DNA from: a bacterium | GTDB taxonomy: Bacteria; Patescibacteriota; Minisyncoccia; Phycocordibacterales; UBA12445 | DNA: 64,000 nt | Direction: 5' to 3' | Assembly (NCBI GenBank): GCA_030648005.1 | Contig: JAUSIP010000016.1 | Span: forward strand, 1,110-65,109 | Part shown: piece by piece, positions 49,970-63,897 of the stretch | Numbering within the stretch: the first letter of the stretch is position 1 | Layout of the letters: each line of letters begins with the position of its first letter | Notes under the pieces: model-generated | Databases searched by the model: none | What the model was told of the DNA's origin: nothing | What the model saw: the letters and a program-made list of their open reading frames with translations, nothing else | Made by a program: the position numbers and the translations under genes

Positions 49970-50050
49970 CGGTTTTTGTTTTTTAGGAGAGAAAACAAAA
50001 ACATCGTTCCGCCTTCATAAAACTAAAAAAGTGGAGAAGTCCACTTTTTC
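49970..50050 (-). terminator. Two tandem hairpins with T-tracts downstream of the minus-strand tRNA cluster
   Basis: ggtttttgtttt-ttaggagag-aaaacaaaaac and aaaaagtgga-gaag-tccacttttt. Confidence 0.6.
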
Positions 50051-50061
50051 TTAACGTTTGA

Positions 50062-50133
50062 TGACCCTACAGAGAATCGAACTCTGATTTAAGCCTTGAG
50101 AAGGCTCCGTCCTAACCGTTAGACGATAGGGCC
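50062..50133 (-). tRNA. tRNA-Glu (anticodon CTC)
   Basis: Minus-strand sense ggcccta-tc-gtc-taacggttag-gac-g-gagcc-ttctcaa-ggctt-aaat-cagag-ttcgatt-ctctg-tagggtc-a; 3-bp D stem typical of tRNA-Glu. Confidence 0.75.
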
Positions 50134-50385
50134 AAATTGTAAACTAACTGCGACCAAACTCTGATTTCCTCCTTACAGGAGCGGTACACCTTTCGCACCC
50201 TACGGGGATGCTCAAGGTCTTGCAGTTGGGTCCCCAAGCCCAACCTCACCTCTCGAAGGCCGTGTCCTAACCGATAGTCCCGACCCCACAGGGTCGAGGA
50301 TCCTCGATTTTATGGAGATTTCGCTGTAACGAAATCGTAATAAAATCGGGAACGATAGGGCCGTTACTGTGAAACTATTCTAATA
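50134..50385 (-). other. About 250-nt GC-rich, highly structured region with degenerate tRNA-Glu-like segments (pseudo-tRNA, interrupted tRNA, or unknown ncRNA)
   Basis: Minus-strand sense begins ggccctatcg (identical to the tRNA-Glu 5' end), contains ctatcggttaggac (D-arm copy) and aaatcagagtt (variable/T copy) separated by nested hairpins (cgattttat...ataaaatcg; atttcg-ttacag-cgaaat; cgaccc-tgtg-gggtcg). No intact cloverleaf could be drawn. Confidence 0.4.
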
Positions 50386-50446
50386 TAACTTGCCAAGAAT
50401 GTAAAATATGATAGTATGAGAAAGGAGGTTTGTAAAGGAGGTCGTT

Positions 50447-50863
50447 TTGCCCCGCAAGAACAATGAGGAGCTCCGAAGGAAGGATCTCCCTAGTGGTAAA
50501 AAAAAGACCCGTTCACGCGGATGCCGAAGCAGAAAACCCAACAATAAGGTTAACCGCGGGAGATATTGGGAGGAGCGAATGGCTAAGCTCCTGGACGATA
50601 ATAACATCAAGTACACAGCCAATAGATCATTTAAAACGGTTAATAAGAAAGGATATAGAAACCATAGGGAAGTTGATTTCTGCCTCCATGAAGATCTAAG
50701 TGTCTTGCGACGAGAACATCCGATCCGGTACATTGAAGTTAAGAGTGGAAAACTAGATAGAGACCAGCAGGAGGATCTTCGTAATGCTGGAATTTATACC
50801 GACATTATCATCCCCCTAGACATAATCTATTGGGAAATACATGGTCTTTCTTTGCAGAAATAA
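50447..50863 (+). CDS. PD-(D/E)xK nuclease-fold protein resembling Holliday-junction resolvase Hjc / YraN, with basic N-terminal extension
   Basis: TTG start 8 nt after AAGGAGG; ...GRYWEERMAKLL...VDFCLHEDLSVLRREHPIRYIEVKSGK (D...E-V-K signature as in Hjc DLVA...CIEVK). Confidence 0.45.
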   Translation: MPRKNNEELRRKDLPSGKKKTRSRGCRSRKPNNKVNRGRYWEERMAKLLDDNNIKYTANRSFKTVNKKGYRNHREVDFCLHEDLSVLRREHPIRYIEVKSGKLDRDQQEDLRNAGIYTDIIIPLDIIYWEIHGLSLQK

Positions 50864-50938
50864 ATCTAGAACTACCCCGGCTACTTAGCCGGATTTTTTC
50901 TTGCCACGCCGATAAGGCGGGTATGCTATAATTATCCA

Positions 50939-51574
50939 ATGAACTTTATAGACACGTTTCTTCATATCGATACATACTTGGCCGGGTTGACATCTGACTA
51001 CGGCGTATATATCTATGCACTACTCTTCCTGGTTATCTTCTTAGAGACTGGGATTGTAGCTACACCCTTCCTACCCGGAGATTCCCTACTCTTTGCTGCC
51101 GGAGCGATAGCAGCTTCGGCTGGCGGATTGAATATCTGGATCTTATTAGCTGTTATAGCTTCCGCATCCATAATTGGAGATTCCGTCAACTACACGATTG
51201 GTAGTTATCTGGGAGCAAGGGCATTTGGAGATCCTAATTCACAGATATTCAAGAAGGAGTATTTAGATCGCGCACAAGAATTTTACAGTAAATATGGCGA
51301 CAGGGCGGTGGTATTGGGGCGCTTCTTCCCAATCATTAGGACATTTGTTCCATTTGTTGCTGGTGTCAGTAATATGAAATATGATAAGTTTGTCTTTTTT
51401 AATATAACAGGCGGAATACTCTGGACACTAGTTTTCTGCTTCGGCGGATACCTCTTCGGCAATATCCAGATAGTGAAAGACAATTTCACTGCCGTTATCT
51501 TTGGTATTATTATTATTTCTCTCCTACCAGGGATTTACCATCTGTTTGCAAATAGATTAAGAATACGTGAGTAA
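50939..51574 (+). CDS. DedA-family membrane protein
   Basis: LPGDSLLFAAGAIAAS...GRFFPIIRTFVPFVAGVSNMKY. Confidence 0.8.
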   Translation: MNFIDTFLHIDTYLAGLTSDYGVYIYALLFLVIFLETGIVATPFLPGDSLLFAAGAIAASAGGLNIWILLAVIASASIIGDSVNYTIGSYLGARAFGDPNSQIFKKEYLDRAQEFYSKYGDRAVVLGRFFPIIRTFVPFVAGVSNMKYDKFVFFNITGGILWTLVFCFGGYLFGNIQIVKDNFTAVIFGIIIISLLPGIYHLFANRLRIRE

Positions 51575-51647
51575 GCATACATTGACTATTTAAGCCAAAA
51601 GACTTAACTTGAATACGGATGTTTTTAGTCTTTGACTCAAGGGAGTT

Positions 51648-52139
51648 TTGCAGATGCTTATCGTCGTACCTGAATTCAAAGAAGTGAAGGGTCAACTGGT
51701 CTTCCTTGCTGGCCCCATACAAGGCGCGGAAGACTGGCAGAGTTTTGCTATTAATTTTTTCTCAAAGAGATGTCCGTCGTTGGATATAGCTACCCCGAGG
51801 GGTAATTATAAAGATCTTAACTTCGATTACGATAAGCAAGTAGACTGGGAATCCTTTTACCTCGCGATGGCATCTAAGAGTGCTGGAATTCTCTTCTGGC
51901 TAGCAAAAGAGAAGACGCATTACTGCGACAGGTCTTATGCACAAACAACAAGATTTGAACTGGCTGAATGGGTGATAAAAAACACCATCAATCCGTTTGT
52001 AAATCTTTTCATTGGCATCGAGCCAGGATTTACCGGCGCGAAATATATTAGAAGGCGACTTAGCCGGGAGTGTCCGGAAATTGTAATACACGAGACCCTC
52101 GAGGCGCTCTGCGAAGAGGTGATCTTGAATGTCCGTTAA
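51648..52139 (+). CDS. Nucleoside 2-deoxyribosyltransferase-like (NDT/YtoQ-fold) protein
   Basis: LVFLAGPIQGAEDWQ flavodoxin-like N-terminus typical of the NDT-like superfamily; otherwise unrecognised. Confidence 0.3.
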   Translation: MQMLIVVPEFKEVKGQLVFLAGPIQGAEDWQSFAINFFSKRCPSLDIATPRGNYKDLNFDYDKQVDWESFYLAMASKSAGILFWLAKEKTHYCDRSYAQTTRFELAEWVIKNTINPFVNLFIGIEPGFTGAKYIRRRLSRECPEIVIHETLEALCEEVILNVR

Positions 52140-52494
52140 ACCCGAGCTTGATTTCGATAGACCGCGACAAGTTACAAAAATCCCAGTATTTCCTGAGAAT
52201 TCAGCAGGACTCAATCGAGGTAGTGTACTCGAGATTACATCGCTCATGCCGGAAGCCGCTCAGTTGGGAGGGCTAAAAGTCGGAAAGAAGATTATGCTGG
52301 GCTATGATGGCACACATATCCGCTCGGGGCCACTTATCTGGCTGGTAGAAAAGATCATTGAAGAGATAGCCTACGGCTGGTGGAAAGTTATCGAGGTGCC
52401 ATTGCCCGACTTCTCAAATGCGGAATTCAACAAGGAATTCGCCTTGATTATCGAACATCTAGAACTTGTACCAGTCATCAAGCTGGATTCCTAA
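52129..52494 (+). CDS. Hypothetical protein (121 aa)
   Basis: Overlaps the previous gene by 11 nt (coupled); no recognisable motif. Confidence 0.4.
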   Translation: MSVKPELDFDRPRQVTKIPVFPENSAGLNRGSVLEITSLMPEAAQLGGLKVGKKIMLGYDGTHIRSGPLIWLVEKIIEEIAYGWWKVIEVPLPDFSNAEFNKEFALIIEHLELVPVIKLDS

Positions 52495-52509
52495 TCAGAT
52501 CACACTCTT

Positions 52510-52538
52510 TACCCCCGCTTAGCGGGGGATTTTTTTTA
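52510..52538 (+). terminator. Rho-independent terminator
   Basis: cccccgc-ttag-gcggggg followed by a T8 run. Confidence 0.8.
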
Positions 52539-52557
52539 TGAAATTTGATAGACTCCA

Positions 52558-53097
52558 GTGGTGACCATACAAATGATCCACCATACAATAAAGCATGTTG
52601 ATGTCTTCCCGGAGGAGGCTTGTGTTGAGCCTGCATTTTATAGCACTAGGCGCACTGCGAAGGGAATCGTCCTTGATTCGCATAGAAAAGTTGCCTTAGT
52701 GTCTAAAAAAGGGAGTGGTTTCTACTTCCTGCCTGGCGGTGGAATTGAGGAGGGGGAGTCGACAGAGGAAGCGCTTAAAAGGGAGTGTGCTGAAGAGATG
52801 GGGCAAAGTATAAAGATCGAAAGAAAGTTCGCGACAACTTCTGAATACCGCGCCAAGTCTGCAGAATTATATGAGACATCATGCTTTATAGCCCGCTTAT
52901 CAGAAGACGGACAAGATTTGGAGGTCATACCCGACGATAGCTTGCTTGGTATGGAGGTACTCTGGATAGGTAAGCCGGAAGCGATAGAACTATTAAAAAA
53001 ACAGGCTAAAAAAATAACTGATAAAACAGATAACTATTACAGCCGTAAATTTAATACTCTCCGCGATCTATACTTCATAGATAAAAGTTTGATATAA
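52558..53097 (+). CDS. NUDIX hydrolase
   Basis: Nudix box GGGIEEGESTEEALKRECAEEMG. Confidence 0.8.
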   Translation: MVTIQMIHHTIKHVDVFPEEACVEPAFYSTRRTAKGIVLDSHRKVALVSKKGSGFYFLPGGGIEEGESTEEALKRECAEEMGQSIKIERKFATTSEYRAKSAELYETSCFIARLSEDGQDLEVIPDDSLLGMEVLWIGKPEAIELLKKQAKKITDKTDNYYSRKFNTLRDLYFIDKSLI

Positions 53098-53103
53098 ATA
53101 AAA

Positions 53104-53124
53104 GGCCTCCAGTTTGCGGAGGCC
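53104..53124. terminator. Hairpin shared by the convergent NUDIX gene and the 53144-53503 gene
   Basis: ggcctcc-agtttgc-ggaggcc. Confidence 0.5.
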
Positions 53125-53143
53125 AGCCAGATTTTCTACTCAC

Positions 53144-53503
53144 TTAATTTTCTTTACGTGGCTTCTTTGGTTTATTTAGGAAGAGCGACCAACATTGAAC
53201 CGGCGTGATCCCTAGCGTCTCTGCTAACTTTATGATACCCATCGTAAACGCGGTATTAATATATCTATCGTACAAGAACCGGCGACCAAAAACATTGATG
53301 TACTCTTGCATATTTATACCATACTGCTTGCTTAATATTAGAGTGAGATCCTCTTCATTTTTCGGCAAGGTAGCCGTGAACTTAGTGTTGAAGTCCGCTA
53401 GTCTCTCTTTGACTTCATTAGTATCGAGTTCAATATATTTGAGCTCCTCGAAGGCTTCATCCAGCTCCTTCTTTGTGTAGGGCGAATTTATTATACCCAC
53501 CAC
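53144..53503 (-). CDS. Hypothetical protein (119 aa)
   Basis: ORF with SD-like ggggatgagtgg upstream; no recognisable motif. Confidence 0.4.
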   Translation of the reverse strand: MVGIINSPYTKKELDEAFEELKYIELDTNEVKERLADFNTKFTATLPKNEEDLTLILSKQYGINMQEYINVFGRRFLYDRYINTAFTMGIIKLAETLGITPVQCWSLFLNKPKKPRKEN

Positions 53504-53596
53504 TCATCCCCCTTTTTTTTATAAACGTCCAATTATCTGACATAATCATAGCCTTTTTTCTTAAAATAATGTAGTCTCTAACACGGAGGTGTTGAC

Positions 53597-54631
53597 ATGA
53601 AAATCGAAGAAGTGGCGAAGATTGACATGGCTAAACTGATCAACGCCACAGGGCTCACAGAAGAAGAGGTACTCACAGCACTTAGAGTGTCTAATCCAAA
53701 ACGATGGCTTAGGGATATGAAGGCAGCGAAGACTATTGGGGAATCCCGACGAGTCTATGATGCGGCGAGCGATGATCTGGAGAACAAAGATCCGGTCAGA
53801 AAGAAGATACTCTACATGCACGAAGCAAGGTGCCAGGCTGTCGTTGATCAAAAAAAGATTGACTCTGTCGAAGACTTGTATGAAATAGTTAATCGTGGAA
53901 TTGTAGATGGCCCAGCATTCACTAAGGCTGCATGGCTTCTCGTCGCATGCATAAAACAACTAGGCCAGTTCGCAAGACTCTATCGTCAACTCATCGAAAA
54001 GAAAAGCACCAATGATGCCTTGATCACAACTGTGGCCGGTGAATTCATCGCTTCATGCATGCTTGAACTGGAGAAGCCGACGCTTACAATGGAAGAGCTC
54101 TATGGTATCCGTGCATACTCATCTTATCTTCCACCTACCCATCCTGTCCGGCATTATGCAAACAAAAAATTCAAGATTGCCCTCGGGAAATTCCTGTCAG
54201 AACCGCGTGTGCTTACTGAACTCACAACTGCTCGGGGCTGGGCTAGAGAAAAACGGGAATTTTCCCGTATAGACTCCCTGATATTCAAGATCGTGGTGAA
54301 GGAGTGTGAAAACAACCCCGTCTTCGCTAATGCTTGTGAAGTTCTAGTCAGATATTTTAATCTGATCGGCCCGAATTCAGCTCAGCGTAAATGCCTGACT
54401 ATACTTGCTGGAAGAGCCCAAACTTTCGATGAGCTTCGGCATGTCTTCGATCGCTACTCCCATGGAAGCTACTTGGATAATCTCCGCCGAAAGATGATTG
54501 ATAAGCTAGTGGCCCTGGCTTCTACGGTTGAACGGCTCATGTTTATTTATGAGAGAGGAGGATCTGGGCTGGTGACGTCTGCTAACAAGAGAAAGATCAT
54601 CCAAAAGTTGGCAAAGATGTACACCAAATAA
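53597..54631 (+). CDS. Hypothetical all-alpha protein (344 aa)
   Basis: SD GGAGG 7 nt before the start; GC about 48%; no recognisable motif. Confidence 0.45.
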   Translation: MKIEEVAKIDMAKLINATGLTEEEVLTALRVSNPKRWLRDMKAAKTIGESRRVYDAASDDLENKDPVRKKILYMHEARCQAVVDQKKIDSVEDLYEIVNRGIVDGPAFTKAAWLLVACIKQLGQFARLYRQLIEKKSTNDALITTVAGEFIASCMLELEKPTLTMEELYGIRAYSSYLPPTHPVRHYANKKFKIALGKFLSEPRVLTELTTARGWAREKREFSRIDSLIFKIVVKECENNPVFANACEVLVRYFNLIGPNSAQRKCLTILAGRAQTFDELRHVFDRYSHGSYLDNLRRKMIDKLVALASTVERLMFIYERGGSGLVTSANKRKIIQKLAKMYTK

Positions 54632-54640
54632 GTAAGAAGA

Positions 54641-54678
54641 AACCCCCTGCGGAAATCGCGGGGGGTTATTAATTTTTT
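54641..54678. terminator. Bidirectional terminator
   Basis: aaccccctgcg-gaaat-cgcggggggtt followed by an AT/T run. Confidence 0.75.
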
Positions 54679-55246
54679 AACGATAGGATGTTGACAACAG
54701 GCTCATTCCCCAGTAGTCGTGGAAACCGAGAGGCTCGCCATCTTCATATCTGTAGATTTCTTCGCGGCCATTGAAATTAGTGAAGTCGAAGAGACGCCCC
54801 TGGTTGAAGTAGATGAACGAATCTCCCTTATAGTACGCCGGGCCACGACCACCGATGAACTGCCCGGTTTCGTATGTCTTTCGCAACACAGCCCTTAGAA
54901 AAGGGATCGCCTCTTTTGAGTAAGCCCCACCATAGTTCATTATCCAAATCGGCCGATCCTTGAACCAGATTGTTGTCGTGCCGGCCGACCTCTCTTCTCC
55001 TGGAATTGCGCAATACTGATCCTGAAGACGGAAGTCGCCGTCTCGATAATGAATGGCCAGGAAGTCTGGCATATCGTGAACCTGTATCTCTTCCGAAAGA
55101 CCACTAGCCAAACATGACGCCATCGCTCTGAAGAAGAATTCGCGAATCTTACTGATGTCCACAGGACACCTCCTATTGCTCCATTTTTTTAAAATCAAAT
55201 CTATCGGCGATATTAACATAGAGTCAACCACCACGCAATATGACAA
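54677..55246 (-). CDS. Hypothetical protein (189 aa; real start may be an internal Met)
   Basis: Aromatic-rich C-terminal region (IWIMNYGGAY...GRGPAYYKGDSFIYFNQGRLFDFTNFNG); unrecognised. Confidence 0.4.
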   Translation of the reverse strand: MSYCVVVDSMLISPIDLILKKWSNRRCPVDISKIREFFFRAMASCLASGLSEEIQVHDMPDFLAIHYRDGDFRLQDQYCAIPGEERSAGTTTIWFKDRPIWIMNYGGAYSKEAIPFLRAVLRKTYETGQFIGGRGPAYYKGDSFIYFNQGRLFDFTNFNGREEIYRYEDGEPLGFHDYWGMSLLSTSYR

Positions 55247-55296
55247 TAAACCGGGAATTTCTACTATTCAACAATGAGTGGTAAAATAATAAGACA

Positions 55297-56262
55297 ATGT
55301 TGTTCTACTTTTATATTTTTATTTTTCTAGTCGCGATAGTATCGCTCGGGGTGTCGAGTGGGATGGTGGCACGTGCCTTGCTGAAACTCGGTAGGATTGT
55401 AGGGCTCAACGAATGCGTGCTTTCTTTTATGCTACTTGGGATCATAACCTCCTTGCCCGAAATATTTATCGCAACAGCATCCGTTATCACAAACAATCCA
55501 CTCTTATCGATTGGAAATATTATAGGTGCCAACTTCACCAATATCACTTTGGCTATCGGACTAGTGGCATATTTGTCTGGCGGAATAGATCTCTCTGGGC
55601 AAGTATCCAAGAGGGTTTTCTGGATATCATTCATGCTAGTTCTAATGCCTTCTTTTTTGGTTCTTGGAGGAGGGTTGTCTCGCTTCGACGGATTACTTCT
55701 ATGTTTAATGTTCCTAGCCTACATAATCGTCTTTTCTTATGATGGACAGTTTCTAGAAAAGTCAGCACCACATGTACCCTACGGTGTACACTACTTCTCT
55801 GAGGTTTATCCAAGCTTGATTAATCTTACCCTAGGACTACTAATACTTGTACTATCCTCAATTTTTATCATACTATTCACTGCTGGACTTACTAGCTATT
55901 GGCCCATCGACTTAATACTCTTTAGCACAGTTGTCCTCGGACTTGCCACCACGCTCCCTGAGCTCTTCTTTGGTATGAGAGGTGCAATAATGCAACACTC
56001 TTCGCTGGCAATGGGTAATATACTCGCATCAACCGTCTTTAATAGCACAGTCATCATCGGTCTACTCGCAATAGTATCGCCGACGGCCACGAATTCTTTA
56101 ACTGCCGGCCCAGTCATCCTAACTTCATCCTTCACCTTTTTAGCATTTATCTTACTATCGGTATTCTCTTACACCGGCTCTAGAATAAACCGCACGGAGG
56201 GGGTATTATTAATGTCGTTGTACTTTTTATTCATCACATCTGCTTCCGCACTTTATTTATAA
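55297..56262 (+). CDS. Ca2+/cation antiporter (CaCA, YrbG-like)
   Basis: Two alpha-repeats GNIIGANFTNITLAIG and GNILASTVFNSTVIIG. Confidence 0.8.
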   Translation: MLFYFYIFIFLVAIVSLGVSSGMVARALLKLGRIVGLNECVLSFMLLGIITSLPEIFIATASVITNNPLLSIGNIIGANFTNITLAIGLVAYLSGGIDLSGQVSKRVFWISFMLVLMPSFLVLGGGLSRFDGLLLCLMFLAYIIVFSYDGQFLEKSAPHVPYGVHYFSEVYPSLINLTLGLLILVLSSIFIILFTAGLTSYWPIDLILFSTVVLGLATTLPELFFGMRGAIMQHSSLAMGNILASTVFNSTVIIGLLAIVSPTATNSLTAGPVILTSSFTFLAFILLSVFSYTGSRINRTEGVLLMSLYFLFITSASALYL

Positions 56263-57353
56263 TGACTGCTATCTATATAATTTTAGGAATAGTTTTTGGC
56301 GCCATCGTCGCTCTTTTTATATTTTATTCACTGAATAAGAAGGTTGAACCTTCTTCCGATAATAATCCTCTGCTCTTGATCCAGAACCAGCTCAATAATC
56401 TTTCTAAAACATTAGACCAGCGCTTGGCAGACTCTGAAAGACACCTCAACGAATCCGTGACCGGCGCGCACCGTGCCATGCAGAACCAGATAGGGGAGTC
56501 GTACAAGATCGTCACTGATCTGACTGAGAAGTTGACGCGCCTCGATGAGACCAACAAACAGGTTGTTGGCTTCGCTGACCAGCTACAGTCACTTCAAGAC
56601 ATTTTGAAGAATCCAAAACAGCGTGGGATACTTGGCGAGTATTACCTAGAGACAGTGCTTAAGAACGTCATGCCACCAGGTAGCTATGAGATGCAGTACA
56701 AGCTTGGACAAGACGAAGATGGTGCCGACTTAATACCCGATGCGGTTGTCTTTGTGAAAGATAAAATCATACCAATAGACTCCAAATTCTCACTCGAAAA
56801 CTACAACAGGATAGTCGCCGAGCGTGACCCGGTAGAGCGCGAGAAGTTGGAAAAACTTTTTGTGAATGACTTAAAAAATCGTATTTCAGAAACAGCTAAG
56901 TATATTAAACCTAGTGCCGGTACTATGGACTTCGCTTTCATGTTCATACCGCATGAGGCCATTTACTATGATCTACTAATCAACAAGATCGGCGCCTTAA
57001 AAGAAGATACGGAGTCGCTGATCCAGCGCGCCGCTTCGAAGTATAAGGTTATCATCGTTTCGCCGACATCTTTCCTAGCCTACCTACAAACCGTCCTCCA
57101 GGGCTTGAAGGCGATGCAGATTGAGGAACAGGCCAAAGATATTGTGAAGCGAGTAGGGGAGCTGACCACACACCTCAAGACTTATATGGAGAAACATGAG
57201 AAGCTCGGCAAGTCGCTCGCCACTGTCGTCAACCAGTACACCGATTCCTCCAAGGAGTTCAAGAAAATAGATAAGGATTTGATGCGTATCACCGAAGCAG
57301 ACGTCGCCCTCGACTACGAACCGCTCTCACTCGACAAGCCAGAGATGGAATAG
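56262..57353 (+). CDS. rmuC: DNA recombination protein RmuC
   Basis: N-terminal TM, long coiled-coil, C-terminal DFAFMFIPHEAIYYDLL nuclease-like region. Confidence 0.75.
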   Translation: MTAIYIILGIVFGAIVALFIFYSLNKKVEPSSDNNPLLLIQNQLNNLSKTLDQRLADSERHLNESVTGAHRAMQNQIGESYKIVTDLTEKLTRLDETNKQVVGFADQLQSLQDILKNPKQRGILGEYYLETVLKNVMPPGSYEMQYKLGQDEDGADLIPDAVVFVKDKIIPIDSKFSLENYNRIVAERDPVEREKLEKLFVNDLKNRISETAKYIKPSAGTMDFAFMFIPHEAIYYDLLINKIGALKEDTESLIQRAASKYKVIIVSPTSFLAYLQTVLQGLKAMQIEEQAKDIVKRVGELTTHLKTYMEKHEKLGKSLATVVNQYTDSSKEFKKIDKDLMRITEADVALDYEPLSLDKPEME

Positions 57354-57404
57354 GCTTAAATTCCAAAAGGCTTCAAAAATCAAATTTGTAAAATTGCTTA
57401 ACCC

Positions 57405-57465
57405 CACTCTCACACCTAGGCCAGAATGATTGTCCCACTAAGACGGGACAGAAGAGGATCATTCT
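57405..57465 (+). promoter_or_regulatory. Long nested hairpin (12-bp outer + 6-bp inner stems) downstream of rmuC; possible terminator or sRNA
   Basis: ggccagaatgat-tgtccc-actaagac-gggaca-gaagagg-atcattctggcc. Confidence 0.4.
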
Positions 57466-57552
57466 GGCCTAAGGGCTCGAGCGGCCGCCCCCACCTACAA
57501 TTTTAAAAATTTATTTTTTCCGCCTTATTTTGGAATTTAAACATATTCCCCC

Positions 57553-57581
57553 TTGCATTTTAGGGCGGATTTTTGTATTAT
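57553..57581 (+). promoter_or_regulatory. Sigma70 promoter with extended -10 for rplU; the ATG lies about 10 nt downstream of the -10, suggesting a leaderless or very short 5'UTR
   Basis: TTGCAT-17 (ending TG)-TATTAT; rplU ATG at 57592. Confidence 0.45.
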
Positions 57582-57591
57582 ACTTGGACTT

Positions 57592-57921
57592 ATGGAATTT
57601 GCAGTAATACAGACGGGTGGCAAGCAGTATATCGTCAAGCCAGGCGACGTTATTCATATTGAGAAGTTGTCCGGATACGACGATAAAAGGCCTGAAAAAG
57701 GGGCAAAAATCACCTTTAACGAGGTTTTACTAGTGGATGACGGGGATAGTACCACTGTAGGCGCACCGTTCATTTCAGGGGCTAAAGTTGAGGGTACGCT
57801 GGTAGAAGAGGGCAGGGATAGAAAAGTCATAATTCAGAAATACAAAAATAAGGTGAGATACAAGAAGCGAATCGGCCACCGCCAGCACTACTCAGAAGTT
57901 AAGATAGACACTATAAAATAA
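57592..57921 (+). CDS. rplU: 50S ribosomal protein L21
   Basis: MEFAVIQTGGKQYIVKPGDVI. Confidence 0.9.
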   Translation: MEFAVIQTGGKQYIVKPGDVIHIEKLSGYDDKRPEKGAKITFNEVLLVDDGDSTTVGAPFISGAKVEGTLVEEGRDRKVIIQKYKNKVRYKKRIGHRQHYSEVKIDTIK

Positions 57922-57925
57922 ACTT

Positions 57926-57952
57926 AAAAATCCACCGAACGGGTGGATTTTT
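57926..57952. terminator. Bidirectional terminator between rplU and recR
   Basis: aaaaatccacc-gaacg-ggtggatttttt. Confidence 0.8.
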
Positions 57953-57955
57953 TCA

Positions 57956-58585
57956 TTACTGTCGATTCTTTAGTGCATTCTTGATTGTGTCACTATCGGA
58001 ATACTCCAGCTCCGTACCGGTAGACATACCGCGGCCAAGGACAGAGATTTTTATAATATTGGAAGACTCACTTCGAGTTTTTTGGCAGATTGGTGTTAAG
58101 GTGTTTCGGACATAATCTGCGGTATTGTCGCCCTCGGGATTGGCGTTCAGGGCGATTATTATTTCTTTAAGGCCGACTTGCGACATATTGTTAATCAGGT
58201 TAGTAAGTTCGCGGATCCGTATCTTCTGTTCCGGATTTTTCTCCAATATCTGAAGCAGGCCACCTAAGATGAAGTACCTGCCGTTAAACTCGCCGGAACG
58301 GGAGATATTCTCTAGATCTATATCTTTAGCTACAACCATAAGCACAGAGCTGTCCCGACTCTGATCACTACATAGTGCACACTGCTGACTGACTGGAGTT
58401 AAAGAAAGTCGGAAGCAAGTGGGACAGTGGCTGACCTCCTTCTTGAGTCTTACAATATAATCAATTAATTCTCTGGTGTAGGCAGTGTTCTCAGCCAGCA
58501 AGAAATAGACGAACCTCTTCGCCTGTCTTGGTCCAATCCCCGGGAATCGGCCGAACATCTGAGTTAACTTGCTTATTGGATCCAT
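57956..58585 (-). CDS. recR: Recombination protein RecR
   Basis: HhH N-terminus (FGRFPGIGPRQAKRF), C4 zinc finger (CPTC...CALC), Toprim. Confidence 0.9.
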   Translation of the reverse strand: MDPISKLTQMFGRFPGIGPRQAKRFVYFLLAENTAYTRELIDYIVRLKKEVSHCPTCFRLSLTPVSQQCALCSDQSRDSSVLMVVAKDIDLENISRSGEFNGRYFILGGLLQILEKNPEQKIRIRELTNLINNMSQVGLKEIIIALNANPEGDNTADYVRNTLTPICQKTRSESSNIIKISVLGRGMSTGTELEYSDSDTIKNALKNRQ

Positions 58586-62138: not shown

Positions 62139-62195
62139 TAGTATAACAAGAGATCAAAAGATATAGTACTGACCTTTAACAAGGAGGTGTGCTCA

Positions 62196-62734
62196 TGAGT
62201 AGTGGTGAGATCAAGGTAGTGAAATATAGGGGTGAGAAGCTCTTCAAATCCCAGGATAATATCATGCTTGATATATTGTACGGCTTCGATTTCTACACCG
62301 GAAAAATTTCGATAATCAGGAGAGGTGTCGAAGTAGATCATTGTACGATTGAGGCCGACGGAAAAAGAGATCCTTCTCCATGCTTCGAGGGGCTGGAAAA
62401 GCTTTTAAAAAATTTCCAAGTCTCAGGCGATCGACAAGAACTGTATCCAGCGTATTTTGAAGAAGGGGACAAGATCCGATTTGAAAATGCACGCTGGGAT
62501 CTCGACTTCAAGGAAGAATTCATAGAGGATGATGTAGCTAACAAACTCTCGCACATTCTTCAAGAATCACTCAAGATTCTAACGACTGTAACACAAGAAC
62601 GAGTGTTAAACAGGTACGACAGATTACTTAAGAAAGAAAGGGAGAAGTTGCTAGCAAATTTCCCGAATTTCCCAATTCATCGGCGGATACTCAAAAAGAA
62701 CGAGTCCATTGATCTAGGATTCAGCAATAAATGA
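62196..62734 (+). CDS. Hypothetical protein (about 179 aa)
   Basis: ATG after AAGGAGG; no recognisable motif; own terminator. Confidence 0.45.
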
Positions 62735-62862: not shown

Positions 62863-63897
62863 ATGGCCGAACCACTCTTTAGTGCGGAAGAATCCTCTCT
62901 GCACAAGTCTGAGATCGATAAACTAAGGGAGGAGCGTAAATATGACGAGATAGAAAATGTTCGCCAAGCATTTATGCTGGAGGGCGTACGCAGAGCTCAA
63001 TCTCGGCCGGAAGAACTATTGAACGGCATGATCATATGTGTAGGTAGCCGGGGACATAAATACGTTCTACTGGATGAAGCCTTCACTCATTCGGATTCCA
63101 AAAAAAATAAGGACGCCCTAAATAGCTTCGACACACCGGAAGCCAGGCGAAATCTCTACACGATCCTACGGGCTCTGGTAGAGGTGCCGAGATCCTGGGC
63201 TTGGTCCGCATTCACTAGATTCCTCCGGGGTATCGGTAAGCAGAACGGGGCGAAGTATCATGGGGCCGGAATGTTCAGTGTAAGATACGGCTGGAAAGAA
63301 AGAGAAGTTAGCGCGATCGCATATGTAATGACGTGCGATAGTTATCGCGGTTACACTACATACTCTAGCGTACTTATGTCTTATGCTGACACCATGAAAG
63401 AGATCGAGGAAGAGGATAGGTATAATAGAGCGAAGTTCTACGCAGTCCGCGCGGAACGGGATATTCCATTCCTGAACAAACTTTGTGAGATGCTCGAAGC
63501 ACGCGGACTAGGACCCATTCCGGCTCTACCCGATGAAAAACCCAAGAAAGAGCGGGAGATAAAAATTTTCAAGGCAGGAGATATTGTACGACAGAAAGAT
63601 CTACGAGATCTGCCCCTGCCGGCTCTGGTCAGAATATCGGTAACAAAGATATTCAAGGGGAAAGAAGGAGAAAAGGATCAGCGCGTTGCGGGCCAGATGG
63701 ACGAAGTTATCACAAGAATTCATGAGAAACATTACTACGACTATTATGTCGTCGCCAAAGACGGTAAGGCCTATAAATACTTTATGGGATACAGCTTCAA
63801 GACAAATCTCGATGGCGCCACCTTCCTCGGCGAATGGAAGGGCGAGATAGTCAAGAATAAAGAGATAAAATTAGATTTCCACTACTACAAAAACTAA
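62863..63897 (+). CDS. Hypothetical protein (344 aa)
   Basis: ATG after AAGGAGG; GC about 50%; no recognisable motif. Confidence 0.45.
   Translation: MAEPLFSAEESSLHKSEIDKLREERKYDEIENVRQAFMLEGVRRAQSRPEELLNGMIICVGSRGHKYVLLDEAFTHSDSKKNKDALNSFDTPEARRNLYTILRALVEVPRSWAWSAFTRFLRGIGKQNGAKYHGAGMFSVRYGWKEREVSAIAYVMTCDSYRGYTTYSSVLMSYADTMKEIEEEDRYNRAKFYAVRAERDIPFLNKLCEMLEARGLGPIPALPDEKPKKEREIKIFKAGDIVRQKDLRDLPLPALVRISVTKIFKGKEGEKDQRVAGQMDEVITRIHEKHYYDYYVVAKDGKAYKYFMGYSFKTNLDGATFLGEWKGEIVKNKEIKLDFHYYKN

Follow-up and report, generated by a model that had tools for sequence, protein, structure and literature searches.

The run of six short genes (O1 to O6) between dedA and a CaCA transporter gene in a Patescibacteria/CPR (Parcubacteria-like) metagenome-assembled genome raises the question as to whether they form a functional system or are simply neighbours. 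We addressed this within a 64-kb window, that is, the whole stretch of DNA that was analysed, starting from an original prediction which had described the six as a block fitting an accessory region. All six open reading frames were recovered where they had been placed, with slight corrections to three start codons (those of O1, the NUDIX gene O3 and O6). The accessory character was not borne out, as the GC content, described as mildly elevated (about 48%), is 44.9% for the block versus 44.2% for the window (74th percentile among 3.6-kb windows), and the highest value in the block, 47.7%, is reached by O6 alone. On the upstream side the block is bordered by S4, RpoA, L17, L13, S9, tRNA-Glu and DedA and on the downstream side by CaCA, RmuC, L21, RecR, DnaB and ThrRS, and the large-scale gene order around it is also present in a relative, L002. 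A search for repeats of more than 25 nt flanking the block was negative, and neither integrase nor transposase families turned up when its six genes and four genes next to them were scanned. Given the normal GC, the lack of repeats and mobility genes and the core synteny with L002 we rejected a genomic island or mobile accessory region. A phage origin was also rejected, since a PHROGs check on the block proteins gave NUDIX families only, phage sequences gave no tblastn match to O5 or O6 and O1 homologues were seen in two jumbo phages only. Rfam returned no RNA element in the block at E <= 0.1. The best reading is a core-chromosome stretch with five independent transcription units and not a single six-gene system; on present evidence we see in it an unremarkable series of hypothetical genes, and not a new system, island or defence locus.

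The expectation that the genes would carry individual terminators was broadly upheld, with three strong hairpins placed as described; these three serve five transcription units, however, and none lies between O1 and O2. The first is an intrinsic terminator 3' of O2 on the + strand (CCCCCGC-TTA-GCGGGGG + T8, 52512..52536, hairpin 52512-52528), and the other two are bidirectional hairpins between the convergent O3 and O4 (53104..53124) and between the convergent O5 and O6 (54641..54667). Terminator-like sites are frequent in the surrounding 50000-58000 interval, with 19 observed versus 7.4 ± 2.6 in shuffles. A hairpin equivalent to the one following O2 is present between O2 and the NUDIX gene in both L002 and a second relative, L088, and with a terminator this strong and conserved O1-O2 are therefore not co-transcribed with the NUDIX gene.

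O1 (51654..52139, + strand) was identified from its open reading frame, HMM comparison and a structure model, and encodes a 161-aa protein with a nucleoside deoxyribosyltransferase (NDT)-like fold. Its start is most likely the ATG at 51654, which has an AGGGAG ribosome-binding site 8 nt upstream and yields the 161-aa protein that is deposited, with identical sequence, as P0001. O1 itself scores below the 30-bit cut-off against PF15891 (Nuc_deoxyri_tr2; ~23.9 bits, E ~6e-5), all 24 aligned relatives match that family at E <= 0.01 (the strongest at 1.4e-10), and a precomputed PF15891 match is attached to most of its database homologues. O1 probably belongs to the large, highly conserved PF15891 family, which is itself functionally uncharacterised; literature searches on PF15891, Nuc_deoxyri_tr2, DUF5680 and YtoQ returned nothing informative, and no activity was found in the literature for any PF15891 member, 4MCJ included. 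More than 1200 homologues of the O1 subfamily were detected, and identity remains at 45-65% across CPR bacteria, DPANN archaea, Planctomycetota and Bacteroidota.

The structure model of O1 is confident and shows a fold like that of nucleoside deoxyribosyltransferases, TIR and LOG proteins, in agreement with the NDT-like call; among its matches are N-glycosidases and N-glycosyl transferases. Of the solved structures the nearest is the PF15891 representative 4MCJ (BDI_0649 of Parabacteroides distasonis), with which O1 shares its fold at only ~20% identity. O1 nevertheless falls outside the sequence profile of the canonical nucleoside 2'-deoxyribosyltransferases (PF05014, EC 2.4.2.6), to which it has no HMM-level similarity; PF05014 was matched by 0 of 24 relatives at E <= 0.01, and neither NDT nor DNPH1 chains appeared at E <= 10 in a PDB profile search with O1. 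Foldseek comparisons with canonical NDTs, DNPH1/Rcl, MilB and the LOG N-glycosidases gave E-values of 0.02-0.1 and TM scores of 0.45-0.55. The conserved features include an invariant loop, FLAGPIQG..W, and an invariant glutamate, E102, within a T-x-R-F-E (TxRFE) motif at the start of helix 3. E102 is a candidate catalytic residue, which on the basis of the motif may correspond to the Glu nucleophile of the NDT and DNPH1 enzymes. We know of no NDT, DNPH1, MilB or LOG family that displays the invariant set of O1 (FLAGPIQG, QVDWE, E86, H89 and R93).

O2 (52129..52494, + strand) encodes 121 aa from an ATG at 52129 that still lies within O1, giving the two genes an 11-nt overlap, and that is served by a GAGGTG ribosome-binding site, and the predicted translational coupling of the two genes is therefore real. 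The O2 family is small (45 clusters, no Pfam entry), combines an SH3-like beta-barrel with helices and is marked by the motif FPxNxLGLxRG ... GxDG..VR ... W ... EI ... W. A word-indexed homologue search with O2 returned only itself, and the L002 and L088 orthologues of O2, like those of O5, were seen only by tblastn on those loci.

O3 (52573..53097, + strand) is a NUDIX hydrolase of 174 aa. Its most likely start is the ATG at 52573, from which it reads the N-terminus MIHHTIKH that is conserved in its orthologues (75-78% identical), and AATTTGATAGACTC, which is also conserved in L002, is probably a promoter of its own. The protein passes the Pfam threshold for MutT/NUDIX hydrolases (PF00293; 43.3 bits, cut-off 21.1) and its Nudix box is intact (GGIEEGESTEEALKRECAEEMGQ), with the consensus GX5EX7REUXEEXGU read in the translation as G-GIEEG-E-STEEALK-RE-C-A-EE-M-G-Q. 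It differs from assigned members in that no NCBIfam equivalog comes near its cut-off, hence no substrate class is given; the PDB profile matches are to generic, unannotated 'MutT/nudix family' proteins. Metagenomes scanned with patterns drawn from the NUDIX alignment, which were overly narrow, gave no match.

The only part of the block with evidence of linkage is a lineage-restricted cassette consisting of the O1-O2 bicistron and the separately transcribed NUDIX gene. Of the six genes only O1-O2-NUDIX are contiguous also in L002 and L088; O4 and O5 change position between the genomes, and O6 is absent from both relatives. As the trio is contiguous in three related genomes only (that of the window, L002 and L088) its adjacency could stem from shared ancestry, and the principal alternative, which we consider plausible yet somewhat unlikely, is that there is no functional unit here at all, the six genes being unrelated neighbours and the trio reflecting synteny inherited within a narrow lineage. 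O1 is solitary in ~130 of 145 distinct loci with unrelated contexts, no gene recurs downstream of it in ~145 distinct loci, and O2 homologues stand alone, without O1, in four further contigs. A terminator and a separate promoter intervene between O2 and the NUDIX gene, and L002 shares the wider order (DedA, CaCA, RmuC), so adjacency there says little. In L088, however, the trio is contiguous although both flanks are entirely different (a metal-ATPase cluster upstream; Maf and NTP_transf_2 directly downstream), and O1 and O2, which overlap by 11 nt in the window, lie only 4-22 nt apart in the relatives. The original prediction had named individual conservation at unrelated loci as the observation that would speak against linkage; O1 and O2 show this in their wider families and do not show it within the immediate lineage, and its caution that any functional linkage is speculative was appropriate.

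A further argument against mere neighbourhood comes from the one recurrent neighbour of O1, an HD phosphohydrolase gene found in 10-12 of ~110-121 loci with enough upstream sequence and always located 0-15 nt upstream; in ~90% of cases O1 has no phosphohydrolase gene of any kind beside it. In a neighbour-joining tree the HD-linked O1 genes group with those of the trio (78/100 bootstrap), and the other O1 genes of this group have the HD phosphohydrolase immediately upstream in place of the trio arrangement. Support is moderate for the trio as one group (66/100) and for its nesting beside three HD-linked sequences (58/100). That related O1 genes are consistently abutted by an HD nucleotide phosphohydrolase suggests selection for a partner. 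The HD-O1 pair, found in related CPR/DPANN lineages, has in common with the window a nucleotide-type phosphohydrolase gene adjoining O1, and its O1 genes are homologues with 48-65% identity that fall in one tree group with those of the trio. The arrangement differs, in that the pair has a 195-aa HD/HDIG protein abutting O1 upstream whereas in the window O2 and a terminator come between O1 and the downstream NUDIX gene. No HD or Maf homologue was found elsewhere in the 64-kb window.

Our favoured reading, to which we give roughly even credence, is that this core-chromosome stretch is not one system and holds a lineage-restricted O1-O2-NUDIX cassette for nucleotide salvage or sanitation together with three unrelated genes. 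What the analysis shows is the structure of the genes, their families and folds, the terminators and the statistics of the neighbourhoods; the substrates, the reaction order and the role of O2 that we propose here are putative. The NUDIX protein would convert a derivative of a nucleoside di- or triphosphate to the monophosphate by hydrolysis, after which O1, as a Glu-containing protein of NDT/DNPH1/LOG-type fold, would cleave or exchange the base at the N-glycosidic bond, yielding a free base and (deoxy)ribose phosphate. The small SH3-like O2 may be a subunit of O1 with an accessory or specificity role, and in lineages whose O1 groups with that of the trio the HD(IG) phosphohydrolase directly upstream might fill the phosphohydrolase role. 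CPR and DPANN organisms are thought to depend on scavenged nucleotides, and the cassette, if it works in this manner, would provide a testable handle on how they process nucleotides, with the HD or NUDIX pairing giving a first functional context to an uncharacterised PF15891 subfamily.

We would extend this only tentatively, and with considerable doubt, to the broader proposition that the O1 subfamily of PF15891 is an unrecognised nucleotide N-glycosidase or base-exchange enzyme with interchangeable phosphohydrolase partners, either HD or NUDIX plus O2. Were this so, ultra-small symbionts living on scavenged nucleotides could rely on O1, and the cassette in the window would represent a variant form of a salvage route not yet described.

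In a related and rather improbable alternative O1 would exchange or excise bases in modified nucleotides or nucleic acids, for instance to remove or salvage a modified base, with the NUDIX protein (HD in related lineages) processing the modified nucleotide pool. DNPH1/Rcl and MilB, which share this fold, act on modified (d)NMPs; in L088, 5 nt separate the cassette from the next gene, which encodes Maf, a pyrophosphatase with known activity towards modified nucleotides. Several O1 loci also adjoin the tRNA-modification genes TsaD, Sua5 and Dus; these tRNA-related neighbours are not recurrent, however, with each family occurring in just 1-3 of >110 loci, and the block itself lacks any gene for a modification enzyme.

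Very unlikely indeed is an anti-phage or nucleotide-signalling role, with O1 as a TIR/SLOG-like effector or signal-degrading enzyme and the NUDIX protein depleting or cleaving a nucleotide signal, as despite the O1 homologues in two jumbo phages and a NUDIX match to the PADLOC candidate model PDC-S07 (E 9e-12), that match is to the generic Nudix box only, O1, O2, O4, O5 and O6 have no match in PADLOC-DB 2.0 at E <= 0.1, no cyclase, sensor, SAVED, STING or other effector family was found among the six proteins in Pfam, NCBIfam or PADLOC, the O1 fold is less close to TIR than to 4MCJ, YtoQ and NDTs, the genes next to O1 have housekeeping roles (e.g. tRNA synthetases and TsaD), its cross-phylum identity we judge to fit a metabolic enzyme better than a defence gene, and the locus is core-chromosomal with normal GC. 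The nucleotide-signal or modification system suggested originally accordingly finds no backing in PADLOC, which matched the NUDIX protein and no second component of any system.

The best reading of O4, O5 and O6 is that they are unrelated to the O1-O2-NUDIX cassette. O4 (53144..53503, - strand) encodes a lineage-specific protein of 118-119 aa that is present in all three related genomes and has a conserved C-terminal helix, GIT.VQ.W.LF. O5 (53597..54631, + strand) is a lineage-specific open reading frame of 344 aa; a word-indexed homologue search returned only itself, it is not paralogous to the other 344-aa reading frame in the window (62863-63897), and its identity to the orthologue in L002 is only 28%, versus 59-81% for neighbouring housekeeping proteins. 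Both genes are placed differently in each of the three genomes, and they are fast-evolving and specific to the source lineage. Neither of them, nor O2, gave a family match.

The gene-level calls made originally for the NDT-like protein, the coupled 121-aa frame and the NUDIX hydrolase stand, as does the description of O4 and O5 as unknowns; O6 (54677..55246, - strand), also listed as an unknown, is a DUF5680 protein, scoring 37.5 bits against PF18931 (cut-off 25) with residues 83-166 spanning profile positions 5-89 of 104. It is 189 aa long when read from a TTG and 180 aa from an ATG, the latter being the start chosen by the gene caller. No O6 homologue was found in any fetched locus, including L002 and the 11.8 kb read of L088, and O6 is specific to the source genome; at its position L002 instead carries a 238-aa gene and a Prok-RING_1 gene.

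The six ORFs predicted at 51648-55246 (O1 to O6) were recovered between DedA (VTT domain; 50939-51574) and a CaCA transporter (55297-56262), with RmuC next. O1 most likely starts at ATG 51654, 8 nt downstream of an AGGGAG ribosome-binding site, giving a 161-aa protein identical to the deposited one (P0001). The NUDIX gene O3 most likely starts at ATG 52573 (174 aa, with an N-terminus, MIHHTIKH, common to its orthologues) and O6 is 180 aa by the gene caller's start. The proposed coupling of O1 to O2 holds, as the O2 ATG (52129) lies within O1 with an 11-nt overlap and a GAGGTG ribosome-binding site. Terminator-like sites number 19 in the 8-kb region compared with 7.4 ± 2.6 in shuffled sequence, and all three strong hairpins fall exactly inside intergenic gaps: 3' of O2 (52512-52528, with a T8 run), between the convergent O3 and O4 (53104-53124) and between the convergent O5 and O6 (54641-54667). 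These hairpins and the O1/O2 overlap therefore define five transcription units (O1-O2, O3, O4, O5 and O6), so that individual terminators, as originally predicted, are seen at the three gaps but not between O1 and O2.

The block lies in a core chromosomal setting, with S4, RpoA, L17, L13, S9 and tRNA-Glu upstream and L21, RecR, DnaB and ThrRS downstream. Its GC content, thought to be elevated at about 48%, is 44.9% versus 44.2% for the window (74th percentile of equal-sized windows). No repeats were found flanking the block, Pfam, NCBIfam and PHROG scans detected no mobility genes in it or the flanking genes, and Rfam detected no RNA families within it. Given this core setting, normal GC and lack of flanking repeats or mobility genes, the framing of the block as an accessory, nucleotide-signal region is unsupported. 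The deposited copies are annotated as 'MAG: hypothetical protein Q7S19_... [bacterium]', and the closest named relatives of O1 and O2 come from Parcubacteria/Patescibacteria genomes.

Homologues of O1 number more than 1259 (45-71% identity) and occur in CPR bacteria, DPANN archaea, Planctomycetota, Bacteroidota and other groups. The family is strongly conserved, with invariant FLAGPIQG..W, QVDWE, E86, H89, R93 and AQT.RFE..W. PF15891 was matched by 24/24 aligned members, although at 23.9 bits the window O1 itself stays under the cut-off of 30, and O1 accordingly belongs to the N-glycosidase/transferase superfold; the original NDT-like call stands for the superfold but not for canonical NDT (PF05014). 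The T-x-R-F-E motif, with its invariant E102, is presumably akin to the motif that carries the nucleophile in NDT and DNPH1. Two jumbo phages (~460-470 kb) also carry O1-family genes, namely an uncultured phage (LR756500.1, 46097-46516; 46% identity) and Sinorhizobium phage Phosso (PV764938.1, 267911-268327; 26% identity, annotated as nucleoside deoxyribosyltransferase).

O3 is, as proposed, a bona fide NUDIX protein with an intact Nudix box, to which family scans gave no substrate-level assignment. Of the three genes described as unknowns, O4 and O5 have no detectable family but O6 is a DUF5680 protein; O1, O3 and O6 fall in catalogued families, and nothing in the block is categorically new. 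A word-indexed search with O5 returned O5 itself only and phage and PDB searches were empty; O4 and O5 are orphans specific to the lineage. The C-terminal segment of O4 (GIT.VQ.W.LF) recalls a helix-turn-helix, and its assignment as a regulator is a low-confidence guess without HMM support. Two further plus-strand ORFs (62189-62734, 181 aa; 62863-63897, 344 aa) have no Pfam family, the latter being unrelated to O5 though equal in length.

O2 has no match in Pfam, NCBIfam, PHROG or PADLOC and represents a small family absent from Pfam, with 45 cluster representatives among 1.84 billion in an exhaustive phmmer search. Members are mostly stand-alone proteins of about 100 aa, and homologues in four other contigs have neither an NDT-like nor a NUDIX neighbour. 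Some are tandem duplications and others carry varied ~100-aa N-terminal extensions with no Pfam match (P0123, P0135, P0128, P0138, P0139, P0147, P0148).

We compared about 145 distinct loci around O1 homologues (80 genome, 80 metagenome and closest-match contigs), among which O1-adjacent homologues of O2, NUDIX, O4 and O5 were confined to the two closest relatives, L002 and L088; apart from these, L078 alone gave a match, to a remote NUDIX with about 30% identity that lies some 5 kb away from O1. The order in L002 (O1 71% identical) is O4 (minus strand, and divergent from O1), O1, O2, NUDIX, O5, while L088 (O1 59% identical) has different flanks, with a metal-ATPase cluster followed by O1, O2, NUDIX, Maf and NTP_transf_2, then the start of O5, and O4 4.4 kb upstream. 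O6 is in neither locus. The interval between O5 and CaCA is a variable spot, holding O6 in the window (54677-55296) versus different genes in L002 (8658-10136; an unrelated 238-aa gene and a Prok-RING_1 gene), after which CaCA and RmuC follow. The O2/NUDIX terminator hairpin is kept in 3/3 genomes, and a promoter-like AATTTGATAnACTC between O2 and NUDIX is common to the window and L002. The unknowns O2, O4 and O5 are fast-evolving, because the window and L002 versions share 41% (O2) and 28% (O4 and O5) identity compared with 59-81% for DedA, O1, NUDIX, CaCA and RmuC.

In a census of genes directly beside O1, an HD phosphohydrolase family was the sole recurrent upstream neighbour (10/110 genes by Pfam, 11/121 loci by tblastn), always 0-15 nt from O1; downstream, the Pfam census found no recurrent family among 116 genes. 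In a neighbour-joining tree the three O1 sequences contiguous with O2 and NUDIX cluster together (66/100) and nest inside a clade of HD-linked O1 genes (78/100). The pairing of a 195-aa HD/HDIG protein with a PF15891 protein is conserved in CPR bacteria and at least one archaeal-labelled genome (loci L003, L006, L089, L096-L099, L106, L138, L150 and, from the archaeal genome, L010), and we found no description of it in the literature searched.

The six genes do not form a single system, and the data support a narrow cassette consisting of the O1-O2 bicistron and the adjacent, independently transcribed NUDIX gene. The cassette most probably serves in nucleotide salvage or sanitation, where a phosphohydrolase step would come before cleavage of the N-glycosidic bond or exchange of the base. 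The main rival, that adjacency of the trio is inherited synteny without functional coupling, is somewhat doubtful and stays credible because the trio is seen in three related genomes only, a terminator divides it, and O1 and O2 are both mostly solitary genes. A metabolic role for the cassette is preferred to defence or signalling on two grounds: genes of this O1 clade repeatedly have a nucleotide phosphohydrolase, either HD or NUDIX, as their partner, and Maf directly follows NUDIX in L088. PADLOC gave a generic Nudix-box match and nothing more, and no sensor, cyclase or other effector family turned up when the six proteins were scanned. A more novel reading, in which ultra-small symbionts would use a new salvage enzyme that can exchange HD for NUDIX as its partner, is rather unlikely.

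Several features were observed near the block. Just upstream of tRNA-Glu(CTC) (50060-50134) lies a degenerate tRNA-like stretch (50150-50290, minus strand) repeating tRNA-Glu segments at 83% identity (50100-50122 with 50255-50277; 50080-50097 with 50157-50174), its 5'-like and 3'-like parts separated by an insert of about 100 nt. ARAGORN and Rfam call tRNA-Glu alone, and the stretch might represent either a duplicate in decay or a tRNA with an intron. Between tRNA-Glu and DedA, a highly basic 138-aa ORF (50447-50863, plus strand), followed by a strong terminator (50877-50892), weakly matches a homing endonuclease in PHROG (E 6.6e-4) and TPD in Pfam (E 0.013), and a 45%-identical homologue adjoins DedA in L002. 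Directly upstream of rplU, the RmuC-L21 gap (57347-57549) has no Rfam family at E <= 1 and holds nested inverted repeats, one pair with 22-nt arms (91% complementary, 159 nt apart) and one with 27-nt arms (78% complementary), which may form an undescribed leader or terminator structure.
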